Source: Candidatus Poribacteria bacterium
Lineage (GTDB): Bacteria; Poribacteria; WGA-4E; WGA-3G
Length of the DNA: 64,000 nt
Direction of reading: 5' to 3'
Assembly: GCA_965198235.1 (NCBI GenBank)
Contig: OZ240248.1
Location: 64,001-128,000 of the forward strand
The stretch's first letter is position 1. Every line of letters begins with the position of its first letter. Under the pieces are notes generated by a model that did not search any database, was not told the origin of the DNA, and worked only from the letters and a program-made list of their open reading frames with translations. The position numbers were made by a program, and so were the translations under genes. Positions 11,451-64,000 of the stretch are shown piece after piece.

Positions 11451-11502
11451 TTTTTAACTATGTGCTTCTTCTCATCGCTCCACTACGTTTCGCGATGGTT
11501 TT
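11451..11502 (-). repeat. TTAAAAA-end hairpin element abutting the response regulator start codon
   Basis: AAAAC CATCG CGAAACGTAGTGGAG CGATG ..GCACATAGTTAAAAA G ATG. Confidence 0.75.
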
Positions 11503-11551
11503 CGGTTCAGGACCATGCAAATTTGGATTCCATACCGACATTGAAAAGACA

Positions 11552-12835
11552 TCAATCATTAGAAATTCGCTTGCCACCCTCTATTGACAACAAAAACTTT
11601 TTACCATCCTCACTCATCTCATTGTTGGTTTCTTCCGGTTTCTCCTCTAATTTCCGCTTGAGAACCGGATAAGAATCCACGATCGGGACCTCGCTAAGGG
11701 ATGTCAAAGCTGGTTTTCGTTCTTCCGCTCTCTCGGTTGCTTCAGCGTATCGTTCATTTTTTTTAGCAACGTGTGCTGCGTCCCGCGCTTTGAAATCTGG
11801 GAGTACCCGTTCCGCAAAGAGTTCCAACGATTCACATATATCCTCATGACGGTTCGCGCCAGCCTGCTGAATGAAGACGACTTGGTCCACCCCAGCGTCT
11901 TCCATTATCTCTAAGTGTTCACGGACCTGATCTGGCGTGCCGATCCCTGCTCTACCTTCGGCTGGATCCTGTGGTGTTTGCTTATATAACTGCCAAATAT
12001 CCGTTTCCCCCGGTATTTGCGAGCCGTTGTGATAGTAATGTGCGAGCCCAAATCGGAAGAAGCGCAAACCGTCTAAACCGCGGGCGATGGCAGTCTCTTC
12101 GTTGTCATGGCATGAAAAGCCTGAGACCATGGCGATGTTCGGGTTCACCCGCTGCGTCAAGGGTTCACACTCTTTCTCGAAAATCTCATAATACTCTTCC
12201 ACCCAGAATTTTGCTTCGTCTGCATCGACAAATGCAAAGGTTAACGCCCCGAGTCCATATCTGGCAGCGTATCGAAGGCTATCGCGGCTGGGACAGGCTA
12301 CCCACGGAGGTGGATGTGGTGTCTGCAACGGTTTCGGGAGGACGTTGCGGGTCGGCATCGAAAAGAACTGCCCGTCATAGCCTGCGTAAGGCGATTGGCT
12401 CATCATTTTCGCCGTTTCACGTGTGCATTCCGCCCACATTTCGCGCTTACATTTTGGATCAACGTTGAATCCATCAAGCTCCATACGAGAGGCGGATTCC
12501 CCCGTGCCCCACTCTACACGTCCATTTGAGACGAGGTCAAGCGTGGCGATGCGTTCGGCGACGCGCGCCGGGTGATTGTAAGCCGGGGGCATCAGCACTA
12601 TTCCGTGTCCCAGTCGAATCTGTGTTGTCCGCTGACTACACGCTGCGAGAAACACCTCCGGTGCTGAGGAGTGTGAATACTCCTCAAGGAAATGGTGTTC
12701 AACCTCCCAGATATAGTCGAATCCAAGTGTGTCAGCCAGTTCCACCTGTGCTAACGCATCTTGAAAGAGTTTATGTTCTGCTCCGTCGTGCCACGGGCGT
12801 GGAATCTGATGTTCATAAAACAGCCCAAATTTCAT
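11552..12835 (-). CDS. LLM-class flavin-dependent oxidoreductase (luciferase-like)
   Basis: MKFGLF, WEVEHHF, HPARVAERIATLDLVSNGR. Confidence 0.92.
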   Translation of the reverse strand: MKFGLFYEHQIPRPWHDGAEHKLFQDALAQVELADTLGFDYIWEVEHHFLEEYSHSSAPEVFLAACSQRTTQIRLGHGIVLMPPAYNHPARVAERIATLDLVSNGRVEWGTGESASRMELDGFNVDPKCKREMWAECTRETAKMMSQSPYAGYDGQFFSMPTRNVLPKPLQTPHPPPWVACPSRDSLRYAARYGLGALTFAFVDADEAKFWVEEYYEIFEKECEPLTQRVNPNIAMVSGFSCHDNEETAIARGLDGLRFFRFGLAHYYHNGSQIPGETDIWQLYKQTPQDPAEGRAGIGTPDQVREHLEIMEDAGVDQVVFIQQAGANRHEDICESLELFAERVLPDFKARDAAHVAKKNERYAEATERAEERKPALTSLSEVPIVDSYPVLKRKLEEKPEETNNEMSEDGKKFLLSIEGGKRISND

Positions 12836-12925
12836 TTTTTAATTTTACCTTGCGGTTAAATAACGTGAATTTGAAATTTAACGTCCCTTTCTCGAATCCG
12901 CTCTCCATTTCACTACGAGCTACGA
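12836..12925 (-). repeat. TTAAAAA-end hairpin element (long form) abutting the LLM start codon
   Basis: CGTAGCTCGTAGTGAAATGGAGAGCGG..CCGCAAGGTAAAATTAAAAA ATG; the terminal 20 nt are identical to the copy at 54394. Confidence 0.75.
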
Positions 12926-13000
12926 TCCTGAGAAAAATCCATGAAAACGCACAACCTAACAGGTTATGCTACAAGTGCCCTGAAATCGCTCTATCTGCCC

Positions 13001-13774
13001 CTACATTTCGGTATCAAGTCTATGCATCTCTTCGTCAGTCAATTGCCATGCGAAAACATCTAAATTCTCGCGTAAATGCGGCACCGAACCCGATTTGGGA
13101 ATTGTGATGATGTCTTGTTGGACTAACCACCTTAGCGCTACCTGTGCCGCGGTCTTGCCATGATTTTCCCCAATGCTCCGCAAGACTGCGTCACTGGCAA
13201 GGTTTCCAACAGCAAGCGGACGGTGTGCCGTCATCACAATATCGCGAGCGTGGCAGTAGTCTCGTAGTTCTGACCGGTTTCTGCGCACATGGTATTCCAC
13301 CTGATTCGTACAAATCGGGAGTTCGGAGACTTCACATGCCTCCTCGACCTGAGCGATGCTAAAATTGCTGATACCGATGCTTTTGACGCTACCGGCTTCA
13401 TGAAGTTTGTGGAAAGCTTCAAAGGTTTCGGTAACCGGAACGGAATCGCTCGGATGGTGAATCAATAACAGGTCGACGTAATCCATCTGCAAATCGTCCA
13501 GACACTCCTCAAAGTGGGCAAGAACATCGGCGTGTCTAAGATGGGGGTGCCAAATTTTGGTGGTCAAAAAGATTTCCTCGCGATCAATATCAGTATCGCG
13601 GAGTGCTTTCCCGATCTCGCGCTGGTTCTGGTACATCCACGCCGTGTCGATATGTGTATAACCCAATGCGACGGCTTCTTTGACGATACGCCGACACTGT
13701 CTACCTTTTAGTTGCCAAGTTCCCAAACCCAATATCGGCATTTCATGTCCTGATGCAAGTGTAATATTTTTCAT
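13001..13774 (-). CDS. Aldo/keto reductase
   Basis: GLGTWQ, HIDTAWMY, DYVDLLLIH, IGISNF, IPKS. Confidence 0.93.
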   Translation of the reverse strand: MKNITLASGHEMPILGLGTWQLKGRQCRRIVKEAVALGYTHIDTAWMYQNQREIGKALRDTDIDREEIFLTTKIWHPHLRHADVLAHFEECLDDLQMDYVDLLLIHHPSDSVPVTETFEAFHKLHEAGSVKSIGISNFSIAQVEEACEVSELPICTNQVEYHVRRNRSELRDYCHARDIVMTAHRPLAVGNLASDAVLRSIGENHGKTAAQVALRWLVQQDIITIPKSGSVPHLRENLDVFAWQLTDEEMHRLDTEM

Positions 13775-13818
13775 AATACCCTTATGATAGACGATTTAGA
13801 AAAAAAAGTCAAAAAAAG

Positions 13819-13847
13819 TTGACAAACACATAGAGATGGTGTATACT
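13819..13847 (+). promoter_or_regulatory. Sigma70 promoter of the tRNA pair
   Basis: TTGACA-17 nt-TATACT, 15 nt upstream of tRNA-Leu. Confidence 0.8.
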
Positions 13848-13862
13848 ATTAACAACACTCAC

Positions 13863-13948
13863 GGTCGAGTGGTGGAATCGGTAGACACAACGGACTTAAA
13901 ATCCGTCGCCTGTAAAAAGGTGTGAGGGTTCAAGTCCCTCCTCGACCA
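13863..13948 (+). tRNA. tRNA-Leu(TAA)
   Basis: Acceptor GGTCGAG/CTCGACC; anticodon arm ACGGA-CTTAAAA-TCCGT; long variable arm; GTTCAAGT. Confidence 0.95.
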
Positions 13949-14020
13949 TGATTTAGGACCTGATGAAAAAAAAGCCGAATCCAGGCAAAACCGAGCAGAA
14001 GGTCCATAGTTAACACTTGC

Positions 14021-14094
14021 CGCAGGGTAGAGCAGCCAGGTAGCTCGTCGGGCTCATAACCCGGAGGACGGGGGTTCAAATCCCCCCCCTGCAA
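14021..14094 (+). tRNA. tRNA-fMet(CAT), initiator
   Basis: C1:A72 mismatch; GGG/CCC anticodon stem around CTCATAA; GTTCAAAT. Confidence 0.93.
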
Positions 14095-14208
14095 TCCCCC
14101 TTGAACTTTTTGTTTTTAAGGAACACAATTAGATTCACAAAGCCCTGCAATTGAAGTATTTTGCCCTTGTAGGATCCATCCCTTGTATCCACTTTTCTGT
14201 GCTGTCTT

Positions 14209-15791
14209 GTCAACTACCCAAGCCTAAAGACTTGGGAAACCTGTTAAGAGTGTCAAACAGCATTAGCTGTGTTGCTTTCTTAAAGCCCGAAATCTTTGCT
14301 TCGTTTTTGTTTCTCGTTTCATAGAGGGTGGTAACCCACGGCTCTCCACGAAGGGCAGCAGCTGCCCTGAGAAGTATGTTTATCGCAGCGTTGTGGTCTC
14401 GGTCTAATACCGTGTCACAAAAACTACAATTAAAGGTTCGTATCGCTAACGAAAGTTTCTTTAGCGATTTCTGACCGCAGCATGAGCAAGTTTGGGACGT
14501 ATTCTTAGGGTCAACTTGGTGGAAGTGGAAACCGTCTCTTTCGGCTATGTTTCCACACCACTCAAAGAAGGTTACCCAAGACGCGTCGGAAATGCTCTTG
14601 CTAAGGTGTTTATTTTTTACCATATTAGATACACGTAAGTCCTCTGCCACTAAAACATTGTTTTCTTTATGGTGGTAGAGTTTATAGACAAGTTTCCCGA
14701 TAAAGTCTTTGCGTTTGTTCGTTGTCCGTTCTTGGTGTAAGGCGGACGCATGCACGGCTTTATACCAACGCTTACTCCTTTTTTTACGACGGGATTGTGT
14801 TTTAGAGTGTTTTCGTAGTAAGCCTTCTGCTTTGCGATACCAACGCGGGTTGTCTTCCTTTTCACCGTCAGAAGTCGTCAAGTAATGCGTAGTGCCAACG
14901 TCAATCGCAATAGCGTCAGTCGGTTCAACTTTCGGGGTATCCGGCAACTCACAGGAAATATGTGCATACCAACCACTTGCCTTCTTAACAATTGAGACTT
15001 CTTTCGGGTCACCTTCAATCGGACGGTGCATGTATATTTTGACTTCACCTAACTTTGGCACTTTCAAACGATTGTGTCTCAAGTTAGTTTCAACAATCGG
15101 GTTCTGGCGGACACGTTCACCTGTCTTGAGTTTGTGTTTGCGCAGACTCCATGTCAAAGAACGGACGCGCTTTTTGTAACGAGGATACCCTTTTTTAGCG
15201 TCACCGTTCTTGCAACGTCTACGAAAGTTCGCAAAGGCTTTATCGTTGCGTTTGAGAGCAGAAACTTGAAAATCTTGTGGCACTTCACGAAAATCGTCGT
15301 GTTTCTCACGGGCTTTCGTCAACAATGTTTGCTGTTCATTCAGCGTAACAAAATGACCTTTTTCCTCATAAGTATATTTGCGATTATCACGGGCAGAGTT
15401 CTGCAGGTATTTTAAATGATCAAACCACTCTAAGAGTGTTTGGGCTTGTGTCTTTGTAGGACACAACGCATATCTAAATGTTAATTTCATGGTATATCCG
15501 TTATCCGTTCTTAACCCCTAATCAGTGGGTAGGCAGACACATAACCTTGCGGTTATGCTGATTATGTCTGCCAACGGATACTCTAATTATACCACATTTT
15601 CGGCTAAAAGTCTGCGGAAAAGTGGGCTTTTGTTTGCGAAAGCCAAACAAAAGGTAACGTTCTGCGAGCCGCAAGCCTCGCAGAACCCCACTTTTCCGAA
15701 AATGTTTTTTTACATAGACCCATGGTCTAATTCACAAGGGCGGGCATTCCTCCCAAACCTAAAGGTTGGGGCTTCCTGCCCGTAAACGTGG
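14209..15791 (-). mobile_element. IS200/IS605-family element, tnpB only
   Basis: Right-end hairpin CCCAAGTCTTTAGGCTTGGGTAGTTGAC; left-end hairpin GGCAGGAAGCCCCAACCTTTAGGTTTGGGAGGAATGCC; the left boundary is approximate. Confidence 0.8.
14210..15490 (-). CDS. tnpB: RNA-guided endonuclease TnpB
   Basis: RuvC residues in IAIDVG, AEDL and DRDHNAAINI; zinc finger CSCC/CSFC. Confidence 0.93.
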   Translation of the reverse strand: MKLTFRYALCPTKTQAQTLLEWFDHLKYLQNSARDNRKYTYEEKGHFVTLNEQQTLLTKAREKHDDFREVPQDFQVSALKRNDKAFANFRRRCKNGDAKKGYPRYKKRVRSLTWSLRKHKLKTGERVRQNPIVETNLRHNRLKVPKLGEVKIYMHRPIEGDPKEVSIVKKASGWYAHISCELPDTPKVEPTDAIAIDVGTTHYLTTSDGEKEDNPRWYRKAEGLLRKHSKTQSRRKKRSKRWYKAVHASALHQERTTNKRKDFIGKLVYKLYHHKENNVLVAEDLRVSNMVKNKHLSKSISDASWVTFFEWCGNIAERDGFHFHQVDPKNTSQTCSCCGQKSLKKLSLAIRTFNCSFCDTVLDRDHNAAINILLRAAAALRGEPWVTTLYETRNKNEAKISGFKKATQLMLFDTLNRFPKSLGLGS

Positions 15792-15935
15792 GTGAAGAGA
15801 GTGTTGGATAGTTATCACTCTTCCCGCCAAGCCCAAAACCCAAATGGCTCCCGAGAATGAACCGCATTGTTGTTCGGCTTTTACCGGTTTTCGGTGCTCG
15901 CTTCTGTGGTTGAGGGCACGCCGGAGCAAAAACAT

Positions 15936-15964
15936 TTGACTTTTTTTTAATTATATGTTATACT
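15936..15964 (+). promoter_or_regulatory. Sigma70 promoter of tRNA(CAT)-tilS-hpt
   Basis: TTGACT-17 nt-TATACT. Confidence 0.7.
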
Positions 15965-16009
15965 TAATGTAGATTTTAGGGCAGAATTTACACGCCCATT
16001 CAGACACGT

Positions 16010-16083
16010 GCCGGTGTAGCTCAGTGGTTTAGAGCACACGACTCATAATCGTGCTGTCCGGAGTTCGACTCTCCGCACCGGCA
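16010..16083 (+). tRNA. tRNA with CAT anticodon (elongator Met, possibly Ile2)
   Basis: Acceptor GCCGGTG/CACCGGC; CACGA-CTCATAA-TCGTG; GTTCGACT. Confidence 0.92.
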
Positions 16084-29227: not shown

Positions 29228-30361
29228 TTAGTGATTGGTTCTGAACCGTTCAGGTCGATAGGGCGAGAACCAGTCCACCCTTGCATCGTCGGCAATTTCC
29301 AAGGTTGCCATTTCACCCACCAAAGGTGCCAATGTTACACCGCTGTGCATTAAGGCGATATACAGATTTTGCACCGCTTCGGTAAACCCAAGTACCGGAA
29401 ACCCATCGAGCGGCATTGGACGATATCCGACCGGTGTTGGAATCGCTTCAGCGTCTGTTATCGCTGGCAAATAAGCTTTGGCACGAGCGAGGAGAGCATC
29501 GGCGTGCTGTTGAGAATTATCACGGTTTATCCCTTCTTGAGTACCCTGTCCGATGCTAAGACTCCCATCAGCCAGTTGTCGGAGGTGGAGATGCTGATGA
29601 TTCTCATCCTTCGACGGTGCATGAATGATCGCAACGTTATGTAAAACCTTAGCACACGGCGTTGTCTTAATAACGATACCCGGACTCCGTTGTTGCGGAA
29701 TATGTGTATGCGCTAAGGACGCGAGTTCAGTCGTCTGAACACCGCTTGCTAAGACAACAACATCGCACGGAAATTCGGCATCGGCGGTTTTGACAGCAGC
29801 GACACTACCGTTCCGAATAACAAACCCAGTAACGCTGGTTTGCGGGTGCACAACCGCACCCGTTTCGCGCGCGTGCTGGAGGCAAGCATCGATGAATCTG
29901 TCGGTTTCAACGTGGATATCTGCATCAGAAAAGGACGCTGCCGCCACAGTACCAGGGTGCAAGTGTGGCTCAAGTGTCAACATCTCGTCACGAGTGATTA
30001 GCCGACACGGGTAACCCCACGTCTGGATTTGCTGGATGCGTTGGCACAGTTGCGTCGCACGTTGTGGATCGTTTTCCCACCGCATTTCGCCCCCATAGTG
30101 AATACCTATATCTGCATCAAGTTGATGGGCAAGTCGGTACCACATATCCAACGAACGTCGATTGAGGGTATGGTAGGCACGCGGATCTTTCCCAAAGGCA
30201 TTTGCCCACGCGAAAGAGTGTCCAGATGCCCCGGCGCCGGGAATGTCGCGCTCCAGAACCGTTACAGCGATACCATTTCGTCGGGACAGATGATACGCGA
30301 TCGCGGCACCGATGACACCCGCACCGACTATCACAATTTTTAAATGATTGCTTCTGGTCAT
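29228..30361 (-). CDS. FAD-dependent oxidoreductase (DAO/glycine oxidase family)
   Basis: IVIVGAGVIG, GYRPMPLDG, HSGVTLAP. Confidence 0.9.
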   Translation of the reverse strand: MTRSNHLKIVIVGAGVIGAAIAYHLSRRNGIAVTVLERDIPGAGASGHSFAWANAFGKDPRAYHTLNRRSLDMWYRLAHQLDADIGIHYGGEMRWENDPQRATQLCQRIQQIQTWGYPCRLITRDEMLTLEPHLHPGTVAAASFSDADIHVETDRFIDACLQHARETGAVVHPQTSVTGFVIRNGSVAAVKTADAEFPCDVVVLASGVQTTELASLAHTHIPQQRSPGIVIKTTPCAKVLHNVAIIHAPSKDENHQHLHLRQLADGSLSIGQGTQEGINRDNSQQHADALLARAKAYLPAITDAEAIPTPVGYRPMPLDGFPVLGFTEAVQNLYIALMHSGVTLAPLVGEMATLEIADDARVDWFSPYRPERFRTNH

Positions 30362-30546
30362 CGTTCCACTTCGTTCCACGATGGTTTTGGGTGCGTTCTA
30401 ACACAATTAAGGATATGTACGTTTTTTAAGGAAATAGCATCTGGAGTCCGCTCTCACAAGCGTACACAGCACCAGTCGCGTTGCGATTTACCAAATATCG
30501 CTGTGGAACGTAGTGGAACAGCGTCCAGAGGCCCATAGTTAAAAAA
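30337..30546. repeat. Divergent pair of TTAAAAA-end hairpin elements (30337-30388 minus, 30493-30546 plus)
   Basis: CATCG TGGAACGAAGTGGAA CGATG..TTTAAAAA and CGCTG TGGAACGTAGTGGAA CAGCG..GTTAAAAAA. Confidence 0.75.
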
Positions 30547-30547
30547 T

Positions 30548-31168
30548 TTATCGATGTGCTGAGACAATAAACCCTGTTAATCCCACAAGCAACAGTTGGA
30601 AACCGGTTTGATAGAATAGCATCAAAAAAGGTTGACAGAGCGCGATTAAACCGAGCGCGATTAAGCCGACAGAAATTTGCTCACACAGGGTTTTCTGCGA
30701 AAAAACGATCGAGAAAACGATTACCCCGGGGAGAAGTAGGTGTAGGGCGGTGCTATTAAGTGATGGAAAGAAAGGCTGGTAAAGAAAAACGACACCGATG
30801 CAGGCACAGGCTGCTGAACCGATAGTCGCTGCTCGCTTCGCCGAGATCGTCATGCCAAACGCAATCGCACAGGCGAAAAGTACATGGAAAGCTGAACCAC
30901 GCAAGATTGAAGGAACAGGCAGACAGAGGAATCCGAGACTAATCGCTAAACCTATGCTGGAAATGATGGCAATTCGCCGTTTATTCTCGAAGGCAGTACC
31001 AGCGAGGATCGCAGCGATACTCAGCAACACCAGCGCGATACCTTTGAGCAAAACGGCATTTTGGGCGATGAGAGTTGGGACGAATGAGATACCCTCTACA
31101 TAGAGGAAGATCGTGCCGAGCACGAAGAACCCGATCGCAAGCAGTTGATTTCGTTTCTCTTTTGCCAT
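30548..31168 (-). CDS. Hypothetical multi-pass membrane protein
   Basis: About 8 hydrophobic segments with an internal repetitive pattern. Confidence 0.75.
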   Translation of the reverse strand: MAKEKRNQLLAIGFFVLGTIFLYVEGISFVPTLIAQNAVLLKGIALVLLSIAAILAGTAFENKRRIAIISSIGLAISLGFLCLPVPSILRGSAFHVLFACAIAFGMTISAKRAATIGSAACACIGVVFLYQPFFPSLNSTALHLLLPGVIVFSIVFSQKTLCEQISVGLIALGLIALCQPFLMLFYQTGFQLLLVGLTGFIVSAHR

Positions 31169-53552: not shown

Positions 53553-53568
53553 TTCCCACCGTAACAGG

Positions 53569-53620
53569 AAACCTGCGTGGAACGTAGTGGAACGCAGCCC
53601 AGGAGCACATAAATTAAAAA
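53569..53620 (+). repeat. TTAAAAA-end hairpin element overlapping the trpC stop codon
   Basis: AAAC CTGCG TGGAACGTAGTGGAA CGCAG CCCAGGAGCACATAAATTAAAAA. Confidence 0.75.
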
Positions 53621-54393: not shown

Positions 54394-54488
54394 TTTTTTA
54401 ATTTTACCTTGCGGAGTAATAAAGGGCGTTTGAACTGTTGTGTGCGTTCCATCTATCCGTCCTCCACTTCGTTACGGACTACGGTTTT
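54394..54488 (-). repeat. TTAAAAA-end hairpin element (long form) abutting the trpC TTG start
   Basis: AAAACCGTAGTCCGTAACGAAGTGGAGGACGG..CCGCAAGGTAAAATTAAAAAA TTG. Confidence 0.75.
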
Positions 54489-54566
54489 GACTGCACAAAT
54501 TAACAGTAACGAACAGCGAGACCTCGCCCCTACAAAAACGGTAGCTTGCAACAACGGCGCAAGCGG

Positions 54567-54745
54567 ACCTTAAGCGGAAACATCTAGTGATACTACCCAC
54601 TACCTAAAGGTAGGGGCTTCGGTTTCATAGCGACTGCGGTTTTCCCAGAGGGTCCGCCGTCTTATTATCGCTCCACCAGCGGGTTCTTATTCCGAATCAG
54701 ATCGGCTTTATCTGGTTTAGGTCCAGGGTACCCCAACCCGCAGAA
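54567..54745 (-). ncRNA. Predicted TnpB omegaRNA (right-end scaffold plus flank-derived guide TAGATGTTTCCGCTTAAGGT)
   Basis: Position between the tnpB 3' end and the right-end hairpin; guide logic from established TnpB biology; 5' limit approximate. Confidence 0.55.
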
Positions 54746-55829
54746 TGTTTATAGCAGCGTTTATGTCTCTGTCGTGGTATGTACTGCAACTTGGACACGT
54801 CCAATATCGGTCTGAAAGCGTTAGGTCTTTGTTGTGATAGCCACAATCAGAGCAAGGTTTTGTTGTAGCTGTCCAACGACCTACTTTCAAGAATGTTTTA
54901 CCATATTTGGCACAAGTCCATTGAAGTATCAATGAGAACTCACCGAAGGCAATATCAGAGATTTTGCGTCCCCAAAGTTTCTTCATGCCTTCAAGGTTGA
55001 GCGTCTCTATCGCAATTTTATCGTATCTGCGAACAAGGCGGAGTGCTAACTTGAAAAACCAGTCCCTTCTACGATCTGCTATATCCTTATGGACGCTGGA
55101 AAGGTGGCGTTTGGCACGAAACCAGCCATTAGAAAGATACTGCTTACGAGAGAGTGCCTTGTTTGCTGAACGGGTTGCGTTGAGACTTTGCTTATAGAAC
55201 TCTGGTGACTCTATCTTGATACCGTCTGAAAGTGTAAGGAATGTTTTAGAACCGAAATCTGCCCCTGCCTCATTACGGGTCAATGGGAGTTTTTCGGAAG
55301 GTTCGCAATCCTCGCAGACAATATAGAGAGAGTAGTCGCCTACATTATCACGTTTGATTGTTATTTTCTTTATCGTGCCTGTCCACTCGCGGTGTTTCCA
55401 AAAGGTGAACGACTTTTTGAGACAGTTGATTGTCAGACGGTTGCCTTCTATTTTGTAACCTGTCTGTGTGAACGTCACGGATTTATATTTATGGTTCGGT
55501 TTGATTTTCGGTTTGCCAACTTTGCGTTTCGTTTTACCTAATTTCCTATCTTCTATGTTGTCAAAGAACCGCTGGTAACCTAAATCTATACGGATAGCAA
55601 CGTCTTGTATCATTTGACTCGGCAAAGCGTTCCAATGTGGTTTTGTTGTCCACTTCAATTGGGTAATATGTTTCAAAATACGAGAAAGTGAAGCATACTT
55701 ACCATAAATCCGATAGTAACGGCGTTGAAGACGCAACAAATGAACATGCACACCGTGCAAATCATCTATAAGATTACCAAGTATGATTATATTGGATTGG
55801 TGATAGAACTCATATTTTTCTGTTTTCAT
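54717..55829 (-). CDS. tnpB: RNA-guided endonuclease TnpB
   Basis: GADFG, IAIETL, DRDINAAINI; CSDC/CPSC zinc finger. Confidence 0.93.
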   Translation of the reverse strand: MKTEKYEFYHQSNIIILGNLIDDLHGVHVHLLRLQRRYYRIYGKYASLSRILKHITQLKWTTKPHWNALPSQMIQDVAIRIDLGYQRFFDNIEDRKLGKTKRKVGKPKIKPNHKYKSVTFTQTGYKIEGNRLTINCLKKSFTFWKHREWTGTIKKITIKRDNVGDYSLYIVCEDCEPSEKLPLTRNEAGADFGSKTFLTLSDGIKIESPEFYKQSLNATRSANKALSRKQYLSNGWFRAKRHLSSVHKDIADRRRDWFFKLALRLVRRYDKIAIETLNLEGMKKLWGRKISDIAFGEFSLILQWTCAKYGKTFLKVGRWTATTKPCSDCGYHNKDLTLSDRYWTCPSCSTYHDRDINAAINILRVGVPWT

Positions 55830-56245
55830 TGTCCGCTTTGACCTTCAATATAGTCTTTTATCACTTGTAGTGTTACACCACCACAGGAACTTACAAATTT
55901 TGAACGCGTCCAAAGTGAAGGTAGACGACTTTTTAGAGACGGGTGTTCTTCACGTAACACTTTTGAGGTGTAACTTTTGATCTTACCAATGATTTTATCT
56001 ACAGAGTCTATCGGAGGTATCTCTATGAGCAAGTGAACATGCTCTGCCTGTGTTTCAACTTCACGAATTTGATAACCATACTCGCCTTGTTTTTCTCGTA
56101 TCAGTTGCTTTAGGCGACCTTGTATTTGAGTATCCAAAACCTTACGACGATACTTGGTACACCAAATTACGTGATATTGACAACTATAGATTGTTTTGTT
56201 TGTTGTTCGGTAATCACGCTTTTTATTAGAGATTTTTAGTGGCAT
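55826..56245 (-). CDS. tnpA: IS200/IS605 Y1 (HUH) transposase
   Basis: YHVIWCTKYRR, EHVHLL, LWTRS, DYIEGQ. Confidence 0.95.
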   Translation of the reverse strand: MPLKISNKKRDYRTTNKTIYSCQYHVIWCTKYRRKVLDTQIQGRLKQLIREKQGEYGYQIREVETQAEHVHLLIEIPPIDSVDKIIGKIKSYTSKVLREEHPSLKSRLPSLWTRSKFVSSCGGVTLQVIKDYIEGQSGQ

Positions 56246-56414
56246 AATATCTTACCTTTCTATTATAGTGTATAGTATATTATACCACATTTTGATTAGA
56301 TTGTCAAATATATTTTCAATCAACGTATTAGCCGTCTACATCCCGCAAGCTAAAGCATGGGGATTTGACGGAAGATTGTTAAACAAATCGCTCTATTTAA
56401 CGCCTTGCGAATAA

Positions 56415-57458
56415 TTAAAAATTGTTTGAGACTGCCTTCAGTCCTTCTAACTTCGCGAGTGCCGCGCCTGAGTCAATGGATTCCGAGGCAAGTTCGATAC
56501 CCGCATCAAGGCTATCCGCTTTCCCGCTCGCAGTAATCGCCGCGCCAGCGTTTAGCACAACGATATCGCGTTTGGGTCCCTTCTCACCCTCCAGGAGATT
56601 GACTATGATTTCAGCGTTCTCCTCCGGCGCGCCACCTAAGAGTGCTTCAGGTTCCGTTCTCGGAATGCCGAGTGTTGTGGGATCCAGGACATAGGTTTTA
56701 ACGGTGCCGTTTCGGAGTTCGGAGACGCGTGAGGTTGTTGTCGTTGTGATGTCATCCAAACCGTCATCCCCACGCACGATAAATGCATGTTGGCACCCGA
56801 GGTTGTTCAGCGCATTCGCATGAGCCTCAGTCAGTTCTGGTGCATAGACACCGATCACCTGTGCCTGCGGTCCTGCCGGATTGGTCAGTGGTGCTATGGT
56901 ATTGAAAATCGTCCGAATCCCGATTTCTCGCCGCGGTCCGATGGCGTATTTCATCGCGCCGTGCAGTGTTGGTGCAAATAGAAAACCGATGCCGACTTCA
57001 TCAATGCATCGTCCGACGTGATCGGGACCAATTTCAATGTTCACGCCCAATGCCATGAGGACGTTCGCGCTACCGCTCTGCCGTGTTACGCCTCGATTGC
57101 CGTGCTTTGCGACCGGCACGTCTGCGCCGGCGGTAACAATGGCAGAAGTTGTTGAGATATTGAAATGGTTTAAACCTGTGCCACCTGTGCTACATGTATC
57201 GACAAGTCGTGGGACCTTCGGCGTGGCTTGCAAGTCAGGCGTATGAAGTGTGGGAACAAGCGTGGCTTTGGCGCGCATCGCACGCGTTGCCCCTGTCAGT
57301 TCTTCTATTGTCTCGCCTTTAAGCCGCAATGCGGTAAGAAAACATGCGATCTGAGCATCTGTCGTCTCACCCTCCATGATCTCGTTCATGGTATCAATCA
57401 TTTCTGCTTCGGTTAAAGCATTTCCTGCCATAACCTGCTGAATCGCTTCACGAATCAT
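56415..57458 (-). CDS. trpD: Anthranilate phosphoribosyltransferase
   Basis: DTCSTGG, FNIST, KHGNR, IRTIFN, NPAG. Confidence 0.97.
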   Translation of the reverse strand: MIREAIQQVMAGNALTEAEMIDTMNEIMEGETTDAQIACFLTALRLKGETIEELTGATRAMRAKATLVPTLHTPDLQATPKVPRLVDTCSTGGTGLNHFNISTTSAIVTAGADVPVAKHGNRGVTRQSGSANVLMALGVNIEIGPDHVGRCIDEVGIGFLFAPTLHGAMKYAIGPRREIGIRTIFNTIAPLTNPAGPQAQVIGVYAPELTEAHANALNNLGCQHAFIVRGDDGLDDITTTTTSRVSELRNGTVKTYVLDPTTLGIPRTEPEALLGGAPEENAEIIVNLLEGEKGPKRDIVVLNAGAAITASGKADSLDAGIELASESIDSGAALAKLEGLKAVSNNF

Positions 57459-57459: not shown

Positions 57460-57541
57460 TTTTTAATTTTAACCTCCTGGACTAAAGAAATCCGAAGAAA
57501 TACCCAAGCAAAAACCCCTCCATTTCATTTCGGGCAGGTTT
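57460..57541 (-). repeat. TTAAAAA-end hairpin element abutting the trpD start codon
   Basis: AAACCTGCCCGAAATGAAATGGAGGGG..CCAGGAGGTTAAAATTAAAAA G ATG. Confidence 0.7.
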
Positions 57542-58388: not shown

Positions 58389-59523
58389 GACGACCTGTTA
58401 TCCATACTTGTAATTTGTTATTTTCACCCACTTCTTGGTTAAGCAAAATGAGTCTTTTTTGATATGTTCGCGTCAAGCGATTTTCTGCACAAAAATTGAA
58501 CACATCCTCAGTGTCACAAGGTAAAAGTAGGTTACCAACGAGATCACCTGTTAGTTTCAATCGGGTGATAAACTGGATATTTGTCCTTTCGTCTATTGCT
58601 ACTTCTTCCATATTCGCAAAAAGAATCAGTTTGAACAAACCATCCTTGATGTCATCTTCAGACGGAAGTTTCCCCTTGCTACTGTTTTTAGATTCTTGTA
58701 TGACTAACCGGTCATTCTCCCAGTAAACTTCATCAGCGGTTAAATAATACTGCCCGCCGAGATAGTTTGAAATGCCGAAAACGCCGTTAGTATTTTCTTC
58801 AAGGGATTCTAAGACGTGCGTTGTTACAGATTCTCTATGGGCAGCTTGGTACGAGCGTGGGAGACTTGCTTCTTTAAATGAGTTTAGACTAAAATGACCG
58901 TTTACTTTAAACCTTTCAAGAGTCTGTAGATGGTTTTTGGGACTGTGAACGGCGACGTTTCTCTCTTGGGATATTCTCTTGTATCCATCAACCGCGTTCA
59001 GATAAATTGACGCAAAATCTTTCTCGAAATGTGTCGTGTTCCAGTGCAACGCCGTCATCCGATACTGACTTACTTCAAACAATTTCTTACGTACGCTTTC
59101 AGCATTTAGGATCTGATCGGTAATTCGGTTTGTTGTGCCAGGTTTTCTCTCCGCATCTTCATACCACGCCAAGATGATATATATGTTTAGGAGATTCATC
59201 CATGAGAATGTGATAAAGTTAATCCGATCATTATTCTGGGTCCCCGCGCCCTCGTCTTTGATGATCGGAATAATTGTAACCTTTTTTGTATTGAAGTGGA
59301 ACGTGTTATAAATCCGTGCGAAAGGGTAAGAGCGCGTCCGTTTCGGTGAAACCCATTTTGAAAAAGCCAGATTGTTTCCTGATGTGCCCAAATCAATTAG
59401 ACCGGATGCCCGTGCTTGATTCACATCAAATTGATTTACATCGTACGCTTCAAATTTCTCTGGATTGAGATAGGGTGTATATGTCGCATCTCTTATGAAA
59501 CCTTTCAAAAAGAGGGTCTCCAT
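58381..59523 (-). CDS. Putative restriction endonuclease partner of the Dam-like MTase
   Basis: Overlaps the MTase start; TADEV..IQESKN PD-(D/E)xK-like motif; RBS GGAGG. Confidence 0.6.
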   Translation of the reverse strand: METLFLKGFIRDATYTPYLNPEKFEAYDVNQFDVNQARASGLIDLGTSGNNLAFSKWVSPKRTRSYPFARIYNTFHFNTKKVTIIPIIKDEGAGTQNNDRINFITFSWMNLLNIYIILAWYEDAERKPGTTNRITDQILNAESVRKKLFEVSQYRMTALHWNTTHFEKDFASIYLNAVDGYKRISQERNVAVHSPKNHLQTLERFKVNGHFSLNSFKEASLPRSYQAAHRESVTTHVLESLEENTNGVFGISNYLGGQYYLTADEVYWENDRLVIQESKNSSKGKLPSEDDIKDGLFKLILFANMEEVAIDERTNIQFITRLKLTGDLVGNLLLPCDTEDVFNFCAENRLTRTYQKRLILLNQEVGENNKLQVWITGRHA

Positions 59524-59752
59524 TGGATGCCTCCACGTTGAAAAAATTTGGTGGTGTTCCCCTAAAGGGGTGTTTTCCATTCTTAAAGTATAGCACGCTT
59601 TGTTTGAGTTTTCAACCTGCTCACCCAGAATCGCCAAATTACCCATTTATTTTCTTAAACTTCATGAGGGGTGATATCCCTATAAAAAGAGCGTATTTAA
59701 GCGACTGCCAGCCGCAGAAAGTGCTATGTCTATAATAGGTAGCAACCTACGG

Positions 59753-61678
59753 TTAAAATAAAAACCGGTACATCGGTTGATTTGCCGTAATTCCTATGAG
59801 GCTCCATACGCTACCGACGATGAATTCGCCTAAAATCAGACCAAGAAAGAACGGAATAAGTTTTCGGTGGGCACTCACACCACCGTGCCGAAGAATAATC
59901 CATTTGATGACTGAGCTCACTAAAATCGAAAACCAGAACACATTCATTGACCAGCTGCTGGAGATAGCGAACCCAGCGGGGTGAAAGGGCCACCAAAAGA
60001 GCCGCATCCGCATTACCATCAGGAAGCCGGTGATGAGGAAACCGATACACATTGCAACGATTGCTGGTACATCTGGTGTTCTCGGCGAGGTCAGCCAACT
60101 TTGGAGTCGATTGAAAGGTCTCCCGGCGAACCAGTCCCGCGCGCCTTCAATGTAAGAAATATGATAGAATGCCCAAAATGAGGCGAATGTCCCGACGACA
60201 ATTGCAAGGCACATTGCAATTAGCAACCGTCGATTGGAAATTCCGGTTCGTTCCGCTAATTTAAATCCTTCCAAGATGTGTGGCATCGGATGTCCACGAT
60301 AGGCGCGATTGAAGAAGAACAGGTACGCTATTATGGTTAAGTTGTGCGGACCGAGCAGGCGCGTTCCGAAAATGCGAGGCATCATCTCATCAGGTCCGAT
60401 GAAATGCAAATCGTGGACAGGCGATCCGAGCTCCGCACGCATTCGGGTCACCGCCGTAGAGATGGCATAATAGATACCAAAAAATACAAGGACCACCCAG
60501 ATAGACATCCCCGCCGTTTTGCAGAAGCCAACGATAAACGCAAGACTCGCGATCAGTCCTAACACTGTCACTCGATAGGACATCGGTTCGTCTGAGTCAT
60601 CAACACTCCGATCATTTCTAAATAACTTGCGTCCGACTTGTGCGAGGTGTTTTCGCGTCGCCACAATCGCGATGACAAACAAGCCGAGATATGCCCCAAA
60701 AGATTGTTCATCGGTGAAAGGGAAGTTTGGCATGCCGCGGACCCCTAAGGCATCTCCGAAGACTCGTTCTACCTTCCAAAAGAGATAGAAAAACCAGCAG
60801 GAAAACGACAAGTCCAGCGGAATAAAGAAAGCGATGCCTACCGCGAACGGAAACACAGCTATCGGGCTCCATCCCACAGCACTCCACGGTTTCTGTGTAA
60901 AGAGCGGACGTAAATCGTAGAGTCTGCCACCCAAACTCGGCACGGTGGGATAGAGGTAGTGAAGTCCATTGAGGATGTCAATTGCACCTGCGATGCCAAA
61001 GCCGAGCCACATCATCTTATTCGTCAGCAAGTTTGTTCTACCGCCACTTGTCAGTTCAAGTGGTAGTTGAATAATGGGGTAGCTCAGTTTCTCGTGCTCT
61101 GTCCACTGTTTCCGGACGAGGCTGTTAATACACACCATCAGGAAGACCATTGCACATAGGAAGCCTCCCCAGACAAAAGTTGTTGTCAGCCATCCTTGTA
61201 TAGTTTCCCATTGGTAAAGGGTTGTTTCGCCGCGATAATACTCCGTTAAGAAAGATCTTGCCTTGACAGCCATCCAATCGGGGATATACCGATGAAACAG
61301 ATCTGCCCAGTCATTTTCTGGTGTCGCGTACCAGAACGCATACGGAATCATCGGGATCAATACGCGAAGTACATCGTGTCCTGCGAGGGAGGAAGCAATC
61401 GCCAACATAACATAAATCGTCAGCAATTCGCCTTGCTGCATTGCAACCCTTGGTGCTATCCGGACTAAGAAGAGATTAACACCTATGATAGCAAAGATGC
61501 AGAAGATGACGTTAAAGTAGAGAGAGATAGTGGTCGGATACCCTTGGCCGGCAGAGTCCAGAATCCAGTACATGTTTGGGATGATAAGGACAGTACCGAG
61601 TAGAATCGCTCGCCAGGATGCTCCATATTTGGAGGGTTCTCTGAATCTGTGAGGTTCTGAGGTTAATTCACTTTTCAA
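59753..61678 (-). CDS. DUF6785/DUF6784-like polytopic membrane protein (putative transporter)
   Basis: RKQWTEHEKLSYPI, RMRAELG, WWPFHPAG, PFFLGLILGE; many TM helices. Confidence 0.75.
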   Translation of the reverse strand: MKSELTSEPHRFREPSKYGASWRAILLGTVLIIPNMYWILDSAGQGYPTTISLYFNVIFCIFAIIGVNLFLVRIAPRVAMQQGELLTIYVMLAIASSLAGHDVLRVLIPMIPYAFWYATPENDWADLFHRYIPDWMAVKARSFLTEYYRGETTLYQWETIQGWLTTTFVWGGFLCAMVFLMVCINSLVRKQWTEHEKLSYPIIQLPLELTSGGRTNLLTNKMMWLGFGIAGAIDILNGLHYLYPTVPSLGGRLYDLRPLFTQKPWSAVGWSPIAVFPFAVGIAFFIPLDLSFSCWFFYLFWKVERVFGDALGVRGMPNFPFTDEQSFGAYLGLFVIAIVATRKHLAQVGRKLFRNDRSVDDSDEPMSYRVTVLGLIASLAFIVGFCKTAGMSIWVVLVFFGIYYAISTAVTRMRAELGSPVHDLHFIGPDEMMPRIFGTRLLGPHNLTIIAYLFFFNRAYRGHPMPHILEGFKLAERTGISNRRLLIAMCLAIVVGTFASFWAFYHISYIEGARDWFAGRPFNRLQSWLTSPRTPDVPAIVAMCIGFLITGFLMVMRMRLFWWPFHPAGFAISSSWSMNVFWFSILVSSVIKWIILRHGGVSAHRKLIPFFLGLILGEFIVGSVWSLIGITANQPMYRFLF

Positions 61679-61915
61679 ATTGCGTGACGCTACCTCTCTA
61701 TAACACGTCTGTTAGCACTTGGATGGAGATTAACCAGAGTCCTTCGTTGAGGGCTCTGTCGGACACTTTTCCTTCAAATTAAATGTATTTTTACCGATTG
61801 CGAAAATAAAATTGCTTTGAAATTTTTTCGGTGTGTCCTGTATAATAATAATAATATGATTTGAATCTCGATCAACAGATCGAGGCTATTTTTAGCACGC
61901 CAAAGGATAAACGCT

Positions 61916-62752
61916 ATGGATACTACAACAGATCTTAATCAAGCAGCAGTCTTTACGCCGGAGCATAAGGAATTTGTCGAAAACAATGGGTATCTGCTAA
62001 TAAGAAATGCCTTACCCCGTGATGTAGTCGCGGAAATTGATGCTGCCGTTGACGAGGTTTATGCTGAAGAGGAAGCCGCGGGCAGACTTGAGGATGGTGG
62101 TAAATTAAACCTCCGTAACTGCATCACGCACCACGAGGCGTTTCTCCAACTCCTTGATTGGCAGAAAACGGTGCCGCTCGCCTACGGGGTTCTCAATTGG
62201 AACGTACAGATGATTACGTCGCACCTCATTGTACTCCCCTCAAAAGAGGAACCGCCTCCTGAGGTGAAGAACCGCATCGGCTTGCACCGCGACGGTGGCA
62301 CGTCACATGGCGAGATGCAGGAACCCCACCCTCGCATCATGCTCAAGATTGCTTACGCCATCAACGACCAGTCCGACCCTGGCTCCGGTGCGACCGTGCT
62401 GGTCCCGGGGAGTAACCGATTGACAGGCAGACCCCCACTTGACCCAGATACAGGCTGGGCACGAGGTGCCATTTCTATGAACGTCAACGCGGGAGATGCC
62501 TTCCTCTTTGAACAACGAACATGGCACGGCATTGGACACAACTGGTCGGGTCTGCCACGCAAAACCATTTTTATGGGATATGCTTACCGCTGGGTCAAAC
62601 CGATGGATTATATCACGATGCCTGATGAACTCGTTGCCAAATGCAACCCAATTCAGAAGCAGTTGATTGGGGTCGTCAGTGATCCGCTCAGTTACTATCT
62701 GCCGAAAGATCAGGATGTACCGCTGCGCTCATTACTTGGTTCACAGGGTTAG
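61916..62752 (+). CDS. Phytanoyl-CoA dioxygenase family protein
   Basis: NGYLLI, LHRDG, VPGSN, AGDAFLFEQRTWH. Confidence 0.9.
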   Translation: MDTTTDLNQAAVFTPEHKEFVENNGYLLIRNALPRDVVAEIDAAVDEVYAEEEAAGRLEDGGKLNLRNCITHHEAFLQLLDWQKTVPLAYGVLNWNVQMITSHLIVLPSKEEPPPEVKNRIGLHRDGGTSHGEMQEPHPRIMLKIAYAINDQSDPGSGATVLVPGSNRLTGRPPLDPDTGWARGAISMNVNAGDAFLFEQRTWHGIGHNWSGLPRKTIFMGYAYRWVKPMDYITMPDELVAKCNPIQKQLIGVVSDPLSYYLPKDQDVPLRSLLGSQG

Positions 62753-62792
62753 CTGGTAAACCTATATTGCAAAATGAGGGAGCATCCACTCC

Positions 62793-63698
62793 CTATTCAA
62801 GTTCGCTTTTGAGCGAAAGGCTGTAGTCGAGCAGCGCGTTTGCATACGGTATGTTGTGAAGCCCGTACCCATTGTCGCCTTTAACCATGTCGTAGTTCAG
62901 TTTTGCGTCCAAATAGGCTTGCGAAGTTTTATTAGGGGCAGCATCAAGCATTGTTTTAACAGCCTGCATCTTTGCCTCTATTTCGGCACGGTATTGTGGT
63001 AACTTTGTCTCCATACTGTTGTCGGCACTATCGTGGCAACCCGCGGTGCTACATACCGAGAAATCCGCTTTGAATGTGTGGCCCCCGTATTGAGCGACTG
63101 TCTCTGGATCCTCTTTTGCCATGTGGCATTGCACGCATCGTTTTTTCATCGCGCGCACATGTGGCGATGGCATCCGTTTCACACCGGCACCCTCGCGACC
63201 CAGGAACATCTCCGACTGTGATTGGTGAATGATACCAGCACCTGCACAACCACAGTCCATTTTATGGCAGTCAACACATAACTTCCTCGCAGGTCTCACC
63301 AGTAAATGTTCCGATCTGCTGTTGTGTGAATGGCATGAGGAGCAGGCAACGGCATTCACCGCCGTCTCTATGTTATAGGTATGCCCTGGGTAAACCCGAT
63401 CGCTGAAAACTTCATAGCCAGAAGAGTGGCAGCTTAGGCACGAGGTCTGGAGCTCATAGGGACCCTCAATCAGGTTGACAAGGGCGTGTGAGTGCCCCGC
63501 TTGCTTCCATTCTTGATAGGCAGGTTCAGTGCCGTGACATTTGTTGCATCCTTCAGCAAAGGGTGTTGTTGGGTTAGACGTAGCCGCCTCTATAGGTGCT
63601 GCGTGCAGTGTCGCAATATTGTCATTGCCACAAAGTGTAAAAAGGGCAACCGTTCCCATCAGTAGGGACAACCCTAAAAATAAGAAAACCTGTTTCAT
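62793..63698 (-). CDS. Multiheme cytochrome c (5 CxxCH plus 1 CxxxxCH)
   Basis: CNKCH, CLSCH, CSSCH, CVDCH, CVQCH, CSTAGCH; signal peptide. Confidence 0.9.
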   Translation of the reverse strand: MKQVFLFLGLSLLMGTVALFTLCGNDNIATLHAAPIEAATSNPTTPFAEGCNKCHGTEPAYQEWKQAGHSHALVNLIEGPYELQTSCLSCHSSGYEVFSDRVYPGHTYNIETAVNAVACSSCHSHNSRSEHLLVRPARKLCVDCHKMDCGCAGAGIIHQSQSEMFLGREGAGVKRMPSPHVRAMKKRCVQCHMAKEDPETVAQYGGHTFKADFSVCSTAGCHDSADNSMETKLPQYRAEIEAKMQAVKTMLDAAPNKTSQAYLDAKLNYDMVKGDNGYGLHNIPYANALLDYSLSLKSELE

Positions 63699-63750
63699 TT
63701 TTTAATTTATTGCTCCTGGGCACCGCTCCATTTCATTACGCGGTGGTTTT
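63699..63750 (-). repeat. TTAAAAA-end hairpin element abutting the cytochrome start codon
   Basis: AAAAC CACCG CGTAATGAAATGGAG CGGTG CCCAGGAGCAATAAATTAAAAA ATG. Confidence 0.75.
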
Positions 63751-63844
63751 CGGTGATCCTATACCTATTTTGGATCTTAGAGATTTTTTTAATTTGGTTA
63801 CCCGTTAACAATGAGATGGAATGAACGTTTGGTATACGCTTCGC

Positions 63845-63931
63845 ACAGGTTTCCCCGACCTTAGGTGGGGGTAGTTGACCAAAGCAGATGTTCTATACGA
63901 ACCCCATTGCTTTAGCCGCCGGAGCATATCA
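63845..63931 (+). mobile_element. Orphan IS200/IS605-type right end(s) without tnpB
   Basis: ACAGGTTTCCCCGACCTTAGGTGGGGGTAGTTGAC resembles the right end at 14209; a second degenerate end GAACCCCATTGCTTTAGCCGCCGGAGCATATCA follows. Confidence 0.6.
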
Positions 63932-64000
63932 GTATACCTTATCTTGATTAAATATGATACCTGATTTTATGAAATATGTCAATTTTTAATTATTCCTTGC

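Follow-up and report, generated by a model that had tools for sequence, protein, structure and literature searches.

A hairpin repeat family in a Poribacteria genome whose fixed end docks on gene boundaries

It has long been an open question how REP-like repeats spread, and the ends of such repeats are usually fuzzy. A 64-kb stretch of the genome of a sponge-dwelling Candidatus Poribacteria (the window, meaning the whole stretch analysed) holds hairpin repeats that end at, or within a base of, the starts and stops of ordinary genes, trpC and trpD among them. Why should a repeat end there? An initial annotation of the window proposed either a mobile or recombinogenic end that abuts genes harmlessly or a genome-wide cis-regulatory leader. 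We believe the idea of a mobile end is closer to the truth, and that the word harmlessly is wrong. The family is probably non-autonomous mobile DNA of the REPIN/MITE-like kind, whose ends join outward and delete their flank until selection halts them at gene boundaries.

The family and its copies in the window

Detection of the family and of its covariation relies on nucleotide profiles and direct pair counts. At E<=0.01 the profiles give 444 matches to subtype A and 243 to subtype B in the genome and 0 in a block-shuffled genome; the family has ~570 ends there (569 counted). Subtype A is ~65 nt long and subtype B ~96 nt, and common to both are a covarying hairpin and a terminal 12-nt box, which reads outward WWARWTWRAAAA. 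Genes were taken from a simple custom caller (4217 genes), so the start and stop classes used below carry some error. The features of the window are these:

11450..11510, minus strand: subtype A copy whose last base (11450) directly adjoins the ATG of a gene for a sigma-54 response regulator
12836..12926, minus strand: subtype B copy, directly adjoining the ATG of a gene for a luciferase-like monooxygenase (LLM)
30337..30546, both orientations: A-A doublet of 210 nt; halves 30337-30398 (minus) and 30486-30546 (plus)
53562..53620, plus strand: subtype A copy; provides the trpC stop and overlies an older end
54395..54486, minus strand: subtype B copy; end 1 nt ahead of the trpC TTG
54534..54586, plus strand: 5' part of a degenerate B-type copy (GTAG foot, alternative hairpin) split by an IS605
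54587..56378, minus strand: IS605-family element with its own ends (tnpA 55826-56245, tnpB 54717-55829), inserted after TTTAA
56379..56421, plus strand: 3' part of the split copy; provides the trpD stop and adds one Phe codon
57459..57541, minus strand: A-type hairpin with a small insert inside; end flush with the trpD ATG
63699..63756, minus strand: subtype A copy that directly adjoins a multiheme cytochrome gene at its ATG
63983..64000, minus strand: end of a whole B copy extending beyond the window; flush with the TTGACA of a sigma-70-like promoter

All ten stretches of the initial annotation lie where it had placed them, but their limits and number have to be redrawn. The 7-mer TTAAAAA which it took for the element end is replaced by the 12-nt box. 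Two of its eight copies, at 30337 and 30493, are halves of one 210-nt doublet. Neither of its two bare ends is bare, since 63983 belongs to a whole B copy at the window edge and 56408-56421 to the 3' part of the IS605-split copy. Of the five copies it placed 0-1 nt from a start, four (response regulator, LLM, trpD, cytochrome) are flush when measured from the box and the one at trpC is 1 nt off. The copy said to contain a start does contain one, and the reading of the DAO gene begins at the element ATG at 30361. The window's IS605 is a passenger inserted into one copy, outside the family. We rejected it as the family's parent on the basis of its own ends and of relative G018, which shows the empty site of its insertion. 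Rfam matches in the window are three tRNAs only.

The stem and inner GNA mini-hairpin covary genome-wide, as had been noticed in the window. The outer six stem pairs are Watson-Crick in 369, 373, 363, 324, 268 and 263 of 387 core copies; the Y-R pair that closes the inner GNA loop is kept in 382 of them (C-G 231, T-A 151). Of 87 B cores, 45 have GTAG, pointing inward, at the foot of the hairpin, and all 83 B cores listed have NNAG there; in 214 A cores GTAG is outside the eight commonest foot words. The box lies 28 nt from the core in A and ~70 nt in B. Copies are mosaic and rarely identical, and 39.5 of the 43.3 kb that they cover is intergenic. We saw no strand bias along the chromosome beyond gene orientation (GC skew is weak). 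The family is confined to one genus, with matches near chance level elsewhere, and within the genus core matches range from 3 to 324 per genome. Full-text searches of open-access literature listed no description of it.

Doublets, copies set back to back with the same 12-nt box at each side (A-A ~155 nt, A-B ~200-230 nt), are copied as units. A partner within 450 nt stands back to back at 190 of 539 ends and face to face at 6, and pairs within 300 nt number 91 back to back and 0 face to face. In two doublet pairs at unrelated loci the match spans 148-149 nt and is lost at the A-run; one further match is longer, and other doublet families match from box to box. Target-site duplications are absent in 84 doublets, with lengths 1-9 at chance (2 bp: 5 against 7.2 in shuffled controls; 3 bp: 0). 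Later deletions could have removed such a duplication, adjacent deletion being a known cause of its absence (PMC11708052).

Gene boundaries and the DNA that was there before

Of 539 ends, 150 have a start codon that begins at the very next base after the box. Starts within -3..+4 nt of an end number 211, so the exact offset accounts for 150 of them; counted from -3 to +2 nt, 203 ends lie at a start and 336 elsewhere. The initial annotation had called for a test of end-to-codon distances against control positions, and starts are enriched: a gene-opening ATG follows the T of the TAAAA tail at 4-9 nt in 174/569 ends, as against 136/1977 other intergenic TTA[AG]AA sites, 45/3000 random intergenic positions and 0/424 element 5' sides. 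Among the 92 A copies with an anchored ATG, 67 have it 10 nt after the internal AT; among B copies, 72 of 104 have it 12 nt beyond CGCAAGG. In other genomes 74/187 B ends are flush with a start. The box precedes the start of 223 of 3647 long ORFs (~6%), and the genes downstream of docked copies are functionally unrelated. The start codon is that of the target gene and matches the start of the ortholog in alignment; only in DAO-like cases does the element supply the ATG. The SD-like word of the element lies 11-15 nt from the ATG while the genome's strong SD peaks at 7 nt, a spacing longer than usual, as the initial annotation held. By a loose 4-mer rule an SD-like word is found in 62/149 docked genes and 1540/3713 others. 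Codon bias gives no sign of a selective filter, since genes with flush ends are not weaker in it than genes that keep an SD (p=0.41). Docking on a promoter -35 element, as at 63983, is not significant (2/539 ends against 58/20000 random positions).

At the other side of genes, 58 genes stop at the TAA of an element box (of 539 ends), 107 ends lie at or inside the 3' end of an opposite-strand gene, and native protein tails of 1-11 codons are replaced by element ends. The contact with stop codons that had been reported is seen, but part of it is trivial because TTTTAA itself holds a stop: a gene ends at that position in 57/569 ends and in 109/1977 control sites. A second box follows just downstream, making stacked ends, in 46/539 ends against 124/5000 random positions. 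The same end is also found inside other copies and in plain intergenic DNA.

Relatives show what these ends displaced. Empty sites at orthologous loci do exist, with 77 of 111 alignable ends missing from at least one relative. These polymorphic sites, the doublets at unrelated loci and the sharp junction bear out the idea of a mobile or recombinogenic end. Where both flanks of a doublet could be aligned to a relative (24 doublets), a zero gap was never found, and where 8 well-flanked doublets were compared with an element-free relative, 12-264 nt of other DNA is at the site. We saw no clean fresh insertion, such as a mobile doublet ought to leave now and then. Native leaders and protein ends have been replaced rather than pushed aside, and the DAO start, trpC, trpD and LLM contradict harmless abutment. 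The left end of the doublet at 30337..30546 lies inside the DAO gene, where 16 native N-terminal codons have given way to 8 element codons, and its right end is 1 nt short of the stop of the gene at 30548. The native GGA/GAGG leader of trpC is retained in at least 5 relatives and the native AGGAG leader of trpD in most; at the response-regulator site (11450) relatives have native leaders or other copies.

The replaced state may combine several events, since their order is read from relatives that share 75-94% identity and have spacers in which other repeats turn over as well. Among these relatives no deletion was caught in progress, and contigs of four sequencing runs (strain mixtures) have joints across element sites and no interpretable intermediate. 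At one and the same start one species may carry an A copy and another a B copy, and in many relatives only the box is left before the ATG, the hairpin being lost. One inner deletion (site 1850303) passes through 8 nt of microhomology; at the outer junction of 77 empty alleles microhomology is absent (A at -1 in 38%).

The junction and who makes it

Many ends have no start codon beside them. In 310 such ends conservation falls from 79% A at the last base to a mixture at the next, and the first three flank bases show a weak preference for N-Y-K, in 161/310 at offset 0 as against 78-93 at offsets 1-5. Leaving out nested copies the counts are 144/288 and 68-93, and with a start at +3..+30 they are 24/63 and 7-16. 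In other genomes the signal is blurred (33/83 at offset 0, 31 at +1, 13-22 elsewhere), and inside coding 3' ends it may stem partly from codon bias. ATG itself fits N-Y-K; it is because the preference holds away from starts that the join looks enzymatic.

We suggest the following. A strand-transfer enzyme acting in trans would cut at the box edge and join the box to a site for which it has a weak preference. Apart from inserting, single ends would re-join outward and delete the DNA in between, as in the adjacent deletion of IS ends, with purifying selection acting as a ratchet. Toward a gene start the last tolerated preferred site would be the start codon, which is why ends would pile up flush with ATG, GTG or TTG; the A-rich box, plus the distant AGGA in B, would presumably suffice for initiation. 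At a gene end a few codons could be consumed because the box carries its own TAA. The offset-0 peak is sharper than a simple ratchet obviously predicts.

The initial annotation had proposed looking for a RAYT/HUH transposase gene flanked by the same hairpin. We found none at the loci examined: a REPtron-like flank of the family is absent at 6 Y1 loci of the genome, 23 in five relatives and 50 RAYT-like loci (partly overlapping sets), and the RAYTs examined in the genome and relatives are flanked by other GTAG REPs. Among 17 repeat families of at least 350 nt in the genome there is no multi-copy IS with family ends; outward ends enclose ordinary genes only, and the inner-side extensions examined share no common ORF. 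Reverse transcriptase and IS110 give 0 matches in this 96% complete genome, 296 basic soluble proteins inspected by eye yielded no new candidate, and a search for phage carriers gave one chance match, with two viral scans blank. IS608-style guide pairing does not fit, by eye. A single resolvase match is present in the genome. GIY-YIG nucleases were rejected (4 loci of the genome, no flanking pairs).

The A end resembles a XerC box, and XerCD/dif was rejected as well: no canonical Xer was found, no dif site was identified, and no ~300-aa XerC/D-like protein is among the best matches listed for the tyrosine-recombinase family. In an integron attC / Xer-type test the flank half-site showed no conservation beyond N-Y-K. 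The genome has two small tyrosine recombinases only. The genus has one that is conserved at a fixed, holA-linked locus, and we count it a weak candidate: it is missing or a fragment in the element-poor genomes G127 and G113 and intact in the element-poor G016, G100, G150 and G152, and copies of the family do not enclose its locus or any of 21 paralog loci. If the family is mobile DNA as we suppose, a lost or unseen transposase has close to an even chance of being its enzyme, an HUH/Y1 protein acting in trans on the folded strand is possible, and this orphan recombinase is an unlikely choice. It is doubtful, though worth stating, that the family is a new non-autonomous class with its fixed end joined onto gene boundaries by an enzyme beyond the known REP/MITE partners, such as a domesticated small tyrosine recombinase. 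If so, that class would have rewritten the translation starts of ~6% of genes, altered the C-terminal codons of dozens of proteins and discarded host leaders.

Perhaps no dedicated enzyme is needed. Host replication and repair (template switching, deletion at stalled hairpins) might spread and trim the repeats, the box surviving where it aids initiation or gives a stop. The failure to find a cognate transposase at Y1 and RAYT-like loci or among multi-copy IS, the box-only remnants before ATG, the microhomology at site 1850303 and the mosaic copies all suit this explanation. We think it unlikely all the same, since the end is equally sharp without a start codon, the outer junction has no microhomology, doublets are exact matches between their two boxes, and the flank preference is also seen outside coding DNA (the 24/63 class).

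Slightly less probable, in our judgment, is aiming at start codons in one step, for example through ssDNA opened at the start of transcription or translation or by means of an enzyme recognising a half-site whose last bases are ATG. AT-N10-ATG, made of A box and flank, is a quasi-symmetric site of the tyrosine-recombinase type. That spacing, the dominance of offset 0 among nearby starts, the independent A and B copies at the same start and the defective recombinase in G127 and G113 are all what such aiming would give. Most ends, however, lie away from starts, ATG stands at offset 0 in only 14 of the 310 non-start ends, over a hundred ends are at opposite-strand gene 3' ends, and the recombinase, intact in four element-poor genomes, is nowhere bracketed by the family. 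A genome-wide cis-regulatory leader, an RNA hairpin and initiation region recruited to many genes, could draw on the many ends near starts, the ~6% of long ORFs, the equal frequency of SD-like words and RNA-library contigs that span element and gene (with no information on strand, start or level), but it is very improbable given that the end is not fixed at orthologous genes, varies so widely in number across the genus, recurs at opposite-strand stops, in nested copies and in plain intergenic DNA, interchanges A with B at one start, serves unrelated genes, and covaries almost purely by Watson-Crick pairs around a GNA triloop, a motif described as stable in DNA (PMC3201870).

Relation to known systems

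The mobile-DNA reading can be set beside several known families. IS200/IS605 ends and their non-autonomous derivatives, as described, also end precisely, with a hairpin lying subterminally at an almost constant distance from the end, and make no target duplication (PMC6006769, PMC3333891). The ends of our family are instead inverted copies, with no strict tetranucleotide target or guide-to-cut pairing found, and they differ from the ends of the IS605 elements in this genome. Neisseria REP2 and Borrelia IR-A/IR-B are likewise dispersed stem-loop repeats directly upstream of unrelated ORFs; in the account cited they carry promoter, RBS and ATG and number in tens (PMC3184786), whereas the Poribacteria element uses the target gene's start codon, in both orientations and hundreds of copies. 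The TAACTGA repeats of Beggiatoaceae also lie just upstream of start codons in place of the SD, give stops at gene-end overlaps and survive mainly at protein peripheries, but are described as unstructured 7-nt direct repeats at variable distance, where ours is structured with a fixed end set flush (PMC4679880).

MITEs and adjacent-deleting IS ends share the short non-coding unit, terminal inverted repeats and precise end (PMC3184786, PMC11708052), as well as flank loss and the missing target duplication that follows adjacent deletion (PMC11708052). Set against these accounts, the Poribacteria family has no target duplication at any length, an asymmetric flank preference and internal hairpins of single-strand type; its TTTT...AAAA termini differ from the genome's IS ends, and no parent transposase was found.

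The consequences reach beyond repeats. A probable parasite has remodelled core genes, trpC and trpD, at both ends, exchanging the native RBS for an A-rich box and rewriting protein termini, in a host that otherwise uses SD. This bears on SD-independent initiation, symbiont genome erosion and gene annotation in the phylum. Hundreds of base-precise junctions per genome, dozens of relatives with other alleles and a flank preference that can be measured make it possible to test directly both candidate enzymes and models of spread.

Close in kind, too, are REPINs and BIMEs with their RAYT. They are likewise described as hundreds of intergenic hairpins, copied as inverted doublets whose spacers are conserved, with singlet remnants, tandem arrays and a lineage-restricted bloom (PMC3116915, PMC3333891, PMC8266576, PMC3733652, PMC6006769). 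Where those hairpins have a GTAG-type foot, about half of our B cores have GTAG and subtype A most commonly has other words. By comparison with those descriptions, the GTAG feet point inward, a separate 12-nt box lies away from the core, the junctions are A|N-Y-K and not C|T, no examined RAYT is flanked, and the family removes flanking DNA and docks on gene boundaries. The family is probably of the REPIN/MITE kind, set apart by its base-precise docking on gene boundaries.

The repeat family and its anatomy

The ten stretches that the initial annotation named from sequence alone are all present in the window, and their family is real. Its two subtypes, A (~65 nt) and B (~96 nt), share a fixed 12-nt A-rich terminal box. 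Profiles derived from seed copies (180 A, 63 B) give 444 A and 243 B matches at E<=0.01 in the 5.17-Mb genome, 569 of them with the terminal tail, and none at that threshold once the genome is block-shuffled. Rfam recognises only three tRNAs in the window and not the family. The core pattern occurs in all 37 sampled genomes of the genus, with 3 to 324 matches each; 84 other genomes of the order hold 0-8, near the reversed-pattern control. An exact B end followed by ATG is present in 62 of 65 genus genomes, and 77 of 80 public records with a B-type end, among the matches listed, are titled Poribacteria.

In both subtypes a 5-6-bp stem encloses 13 purine-rich nucleotides, within which A-Y-GNA-R-T forms an inner mini-hairpin. 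The covariation proposed for the stem and the inner pairs holds up, as Watson-Crick covariation in 387 copies. Triloops of the GNA type closed by C-G are described as very stable in DNA (PMC3201870); 151 of the 387 copies here close with T-A instead. Subtype B has in addition a GTAG-like foot (45/87), a variable stretch of ~45 nt and another small hairpin, CCGCAAGG. Swaps that bring in different hairpin cores or small inserts make the family mosaic. Inserts of 20-70 nt lie within its hairpin loops and within one another (window 57490-57520 and many other loci).

The doublet, two copies back-to-back with boxes outward, is a unit. A back-to-back partner lies within 450 nt of 190 of 539 ends, a face-to-face partner of 6. 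Two doublet pairs at unrelated loci are identical over 148-149 nt and diverge from the A-run on, and in further doublet families the match spans box to box. The second contig (44 kb) repeats a doublet plus flanks found at 808 kb of the main contig, C1, so it may duplicate part of that contig.

The fixed end, its junction and the DNA it replaces

The end is fixed to the base. Anchoring on the T/A boundary gives two start-codon peaks, which merge when inner features are the anchor: 67 of 92 A copies have ATG 10 nt past their AT dinucleotide, and 72 of 104 B copies have it 12 nt past CGCAAGG. Among start codons at -3 to +4 nt of the box end, 150 of 211 follow it directly (134 ATG, 8 GTG, 8 TTG). 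In other genomes 187 B ends include 74 that are flush, 14 displaced to -1 and 6 to +1, counts that are not independent because they are partly orthologous. The 539 main-contig ends divide as follows: 203 meet a start; 107 meet or enter the 3' end of an opposite-strand gene, and 58 of these use the box's own TAA; 64 lie no more than 30 nt before a start, 33 with the SD kept; 30 lie no more than 30 nt from a stop; 33 fall within a frame on the same strand; 26 join another copy; 76 lie elsewhere. The box precedes the start of 223 of 3647 long ORFs (~6%), and of 5/281 and 0/63 in two element-poor genomes. Of the 539 ends, 46 sit on top of an older end; for random positions the figure is 124 of 5000. 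At window 63954-63982 a near-consensus sigma-70 promoter has its -35 box flush with a B end and is retained in relatives lacking the element; this arrangement has no genome-wide excess.

The junction of box and flank looks enzymatic. The 84 doublets compared show no target duplication, and the 77 empty alleles no microhomology. At 161 of 310 ends without a start codon the flank opens with three bases fitting N-Y-K; the five offsets that follow give 78-93 (with nested copies left out, 144 of 288 against 68-93). Codon bias within coding ends may inflate this excess. The preference is asymmetric, and less pronounced in other genomes, where offset 0 has 33 of 83, +1 has 31 and the offsets beyond have 13-22. 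That host repair makes these joints without a dedicated enzyme is the best of the alternatives, and we think it unlikely. ATG, GTG and TTG all match N-Y-K. The idea that starts are targeted in one step we rate slightly lower still.

The sites are polymorphic. The initial annotation's proposal of mobility is borne out at orthologous loci (ten genomes supplying ~0.8 Mb around the window, and two supplying 0.4 Mb each): 77 of 111 ends with alignable flank are absent in at least one relative. Element-free alleles have native GGAG/GAGG leaders before trpC, trpD, the LLM gene, the response regulator and the cytochrome gene, and among the empty alleles at flush starts 11 of 24 carry an SD word. No clean insertion was found in 24 doublets with both flanks aligned, one of them a misaligned row and eight facing a copy of the relative's own. 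DNA is replaced: across eight well-aligned doublets the element-free relative has 12-264 nt of other DNA between the flanks. The DAO gene has lost 16 N-terminal codons and holds 8 element codons in their place, and the ends of trpC, trpD and LLM are rewritten. Comparison of 22 genes shows native tails of 1-11 codons replaced; in that set, frame artefacts account for two rows (37 and 182 codons), and older ends for some of the 'empty' calls. One and the same start can carry an A copy in one species and a B copy in another. A 156-nt doublet lies flush with a carotenoid gene start in one sister-genus genome, where another has ~40 nt of other DNA. This single A-A doublet (L138:5250-5410), placed among clustered carotenoid genes, was likely acquired by horizontal transfer; its host genome (G073) is otherwise almost without copies. 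Upstream of the DAO gene in three relatives (G002, G008, G019), TAACTGA-like heptamer repeats reach start codons, as described for Beggiatoaceae.

The genome uses SD, with strong words peaking 7 nt before the start; the element's SD-like words lie farther off, ending at 11 nt in B and at 12-15 nt in A. Under a loose rule such words are as frequent in docked genes (62/149) as in others (1540/3713), so the B copies may provide a weak, putative site. By codon bias, flush genes and SD-keeping genes cannot be told apart. A regulatory leader, the initial annotation's other suggestion, is very improbable.

In the reading we favor, and believe somewhat probable, an enzyme acting in trans would join the box edge to weakly preferred sites. 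Single ends would re-join outward and remove the DNA beside them, in the manner of the adjacent deletions made by IS ends (PMC11708052). Selection would stop ends at the start codon, and would tolerate the loss of a few codons where the box supplies its own stop.

Candidate enzymes

A RAYT/HUH transposase flanked by the same hairpin, which the initial annotation proposed to look for, did not turn up among the Y1 loci examined; the genus's RAYTs are flanked by their own GTAG REPs. Several RAYT clades with such REPs (REPtrons) occur across the genus (L199-L228), and in the genome studied a tnpB element interrupts the RAYT near C1:614255-616083. The IS605 between trpD and trpC is rejected as parent, having its own ends and being inserted into a degenerate family copy. 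It is intact (tnpA and tnpB, window 54587-56378), follows TTTAA and terminates in TCAC; one relative (G018) has the exact empty site. A second tnpB gene, lacking tnpA, lies between tRNA genes at window 14210-15490, and elsewhere the genome has many TnpB and a few IscB-like genes. GIY-YIG loci, a reverse transcriptase, IS110 and multi-copy IS gave no fit.

One small tyrosine recombinase, a weak candidate only, stands at a fixed locus of the genus (77-89% identity in about 60 of 65 genomes), after a gene we take to be holA-like. It was not found intact in two element-poor genomes, is intact in four other poor ones, and is never bracketed by the family. In the bacterial family of the studied genome the best tyrosine recombinase matches are 200-270 aa (G000:C1:2966917-2967684; L123-L137); other families of the order have ~300-aa XerC/D-like proteins. 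The small protein may be standing in for Xer. The sister genus keeps a different tyrosine recombinase, and mobile paralogs lie in defence-island-like regions.

Comparison with known systems

None of the openly available main texts listed by full-text literature searches describes the family. Repeats that abut starts are known, in Neisseria REP2 and the Borrelia IR (PMC3184786) and in TAACTGA repeats (PMC4679880), but the parts of these descriptions that we cite mention no base-precise two-way end replacing leaders and termini. Unlike a REPIN, the family has no REPtron that we could find. At the hairpin foot of subtype A, GTAG is not among the eight commonest words in 214 cores. Unlike a MITE, the family shows no target duplication and has no parent IS that we found. 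It is nonetheless a non-autonomous repeat, with unusual and testable behaviour, that works much as REPINs and MITEs do in the portions cited of their descriptions (PMC3116915, PMC3733652, PMC6006769, PMC3333891, PMC8266576).
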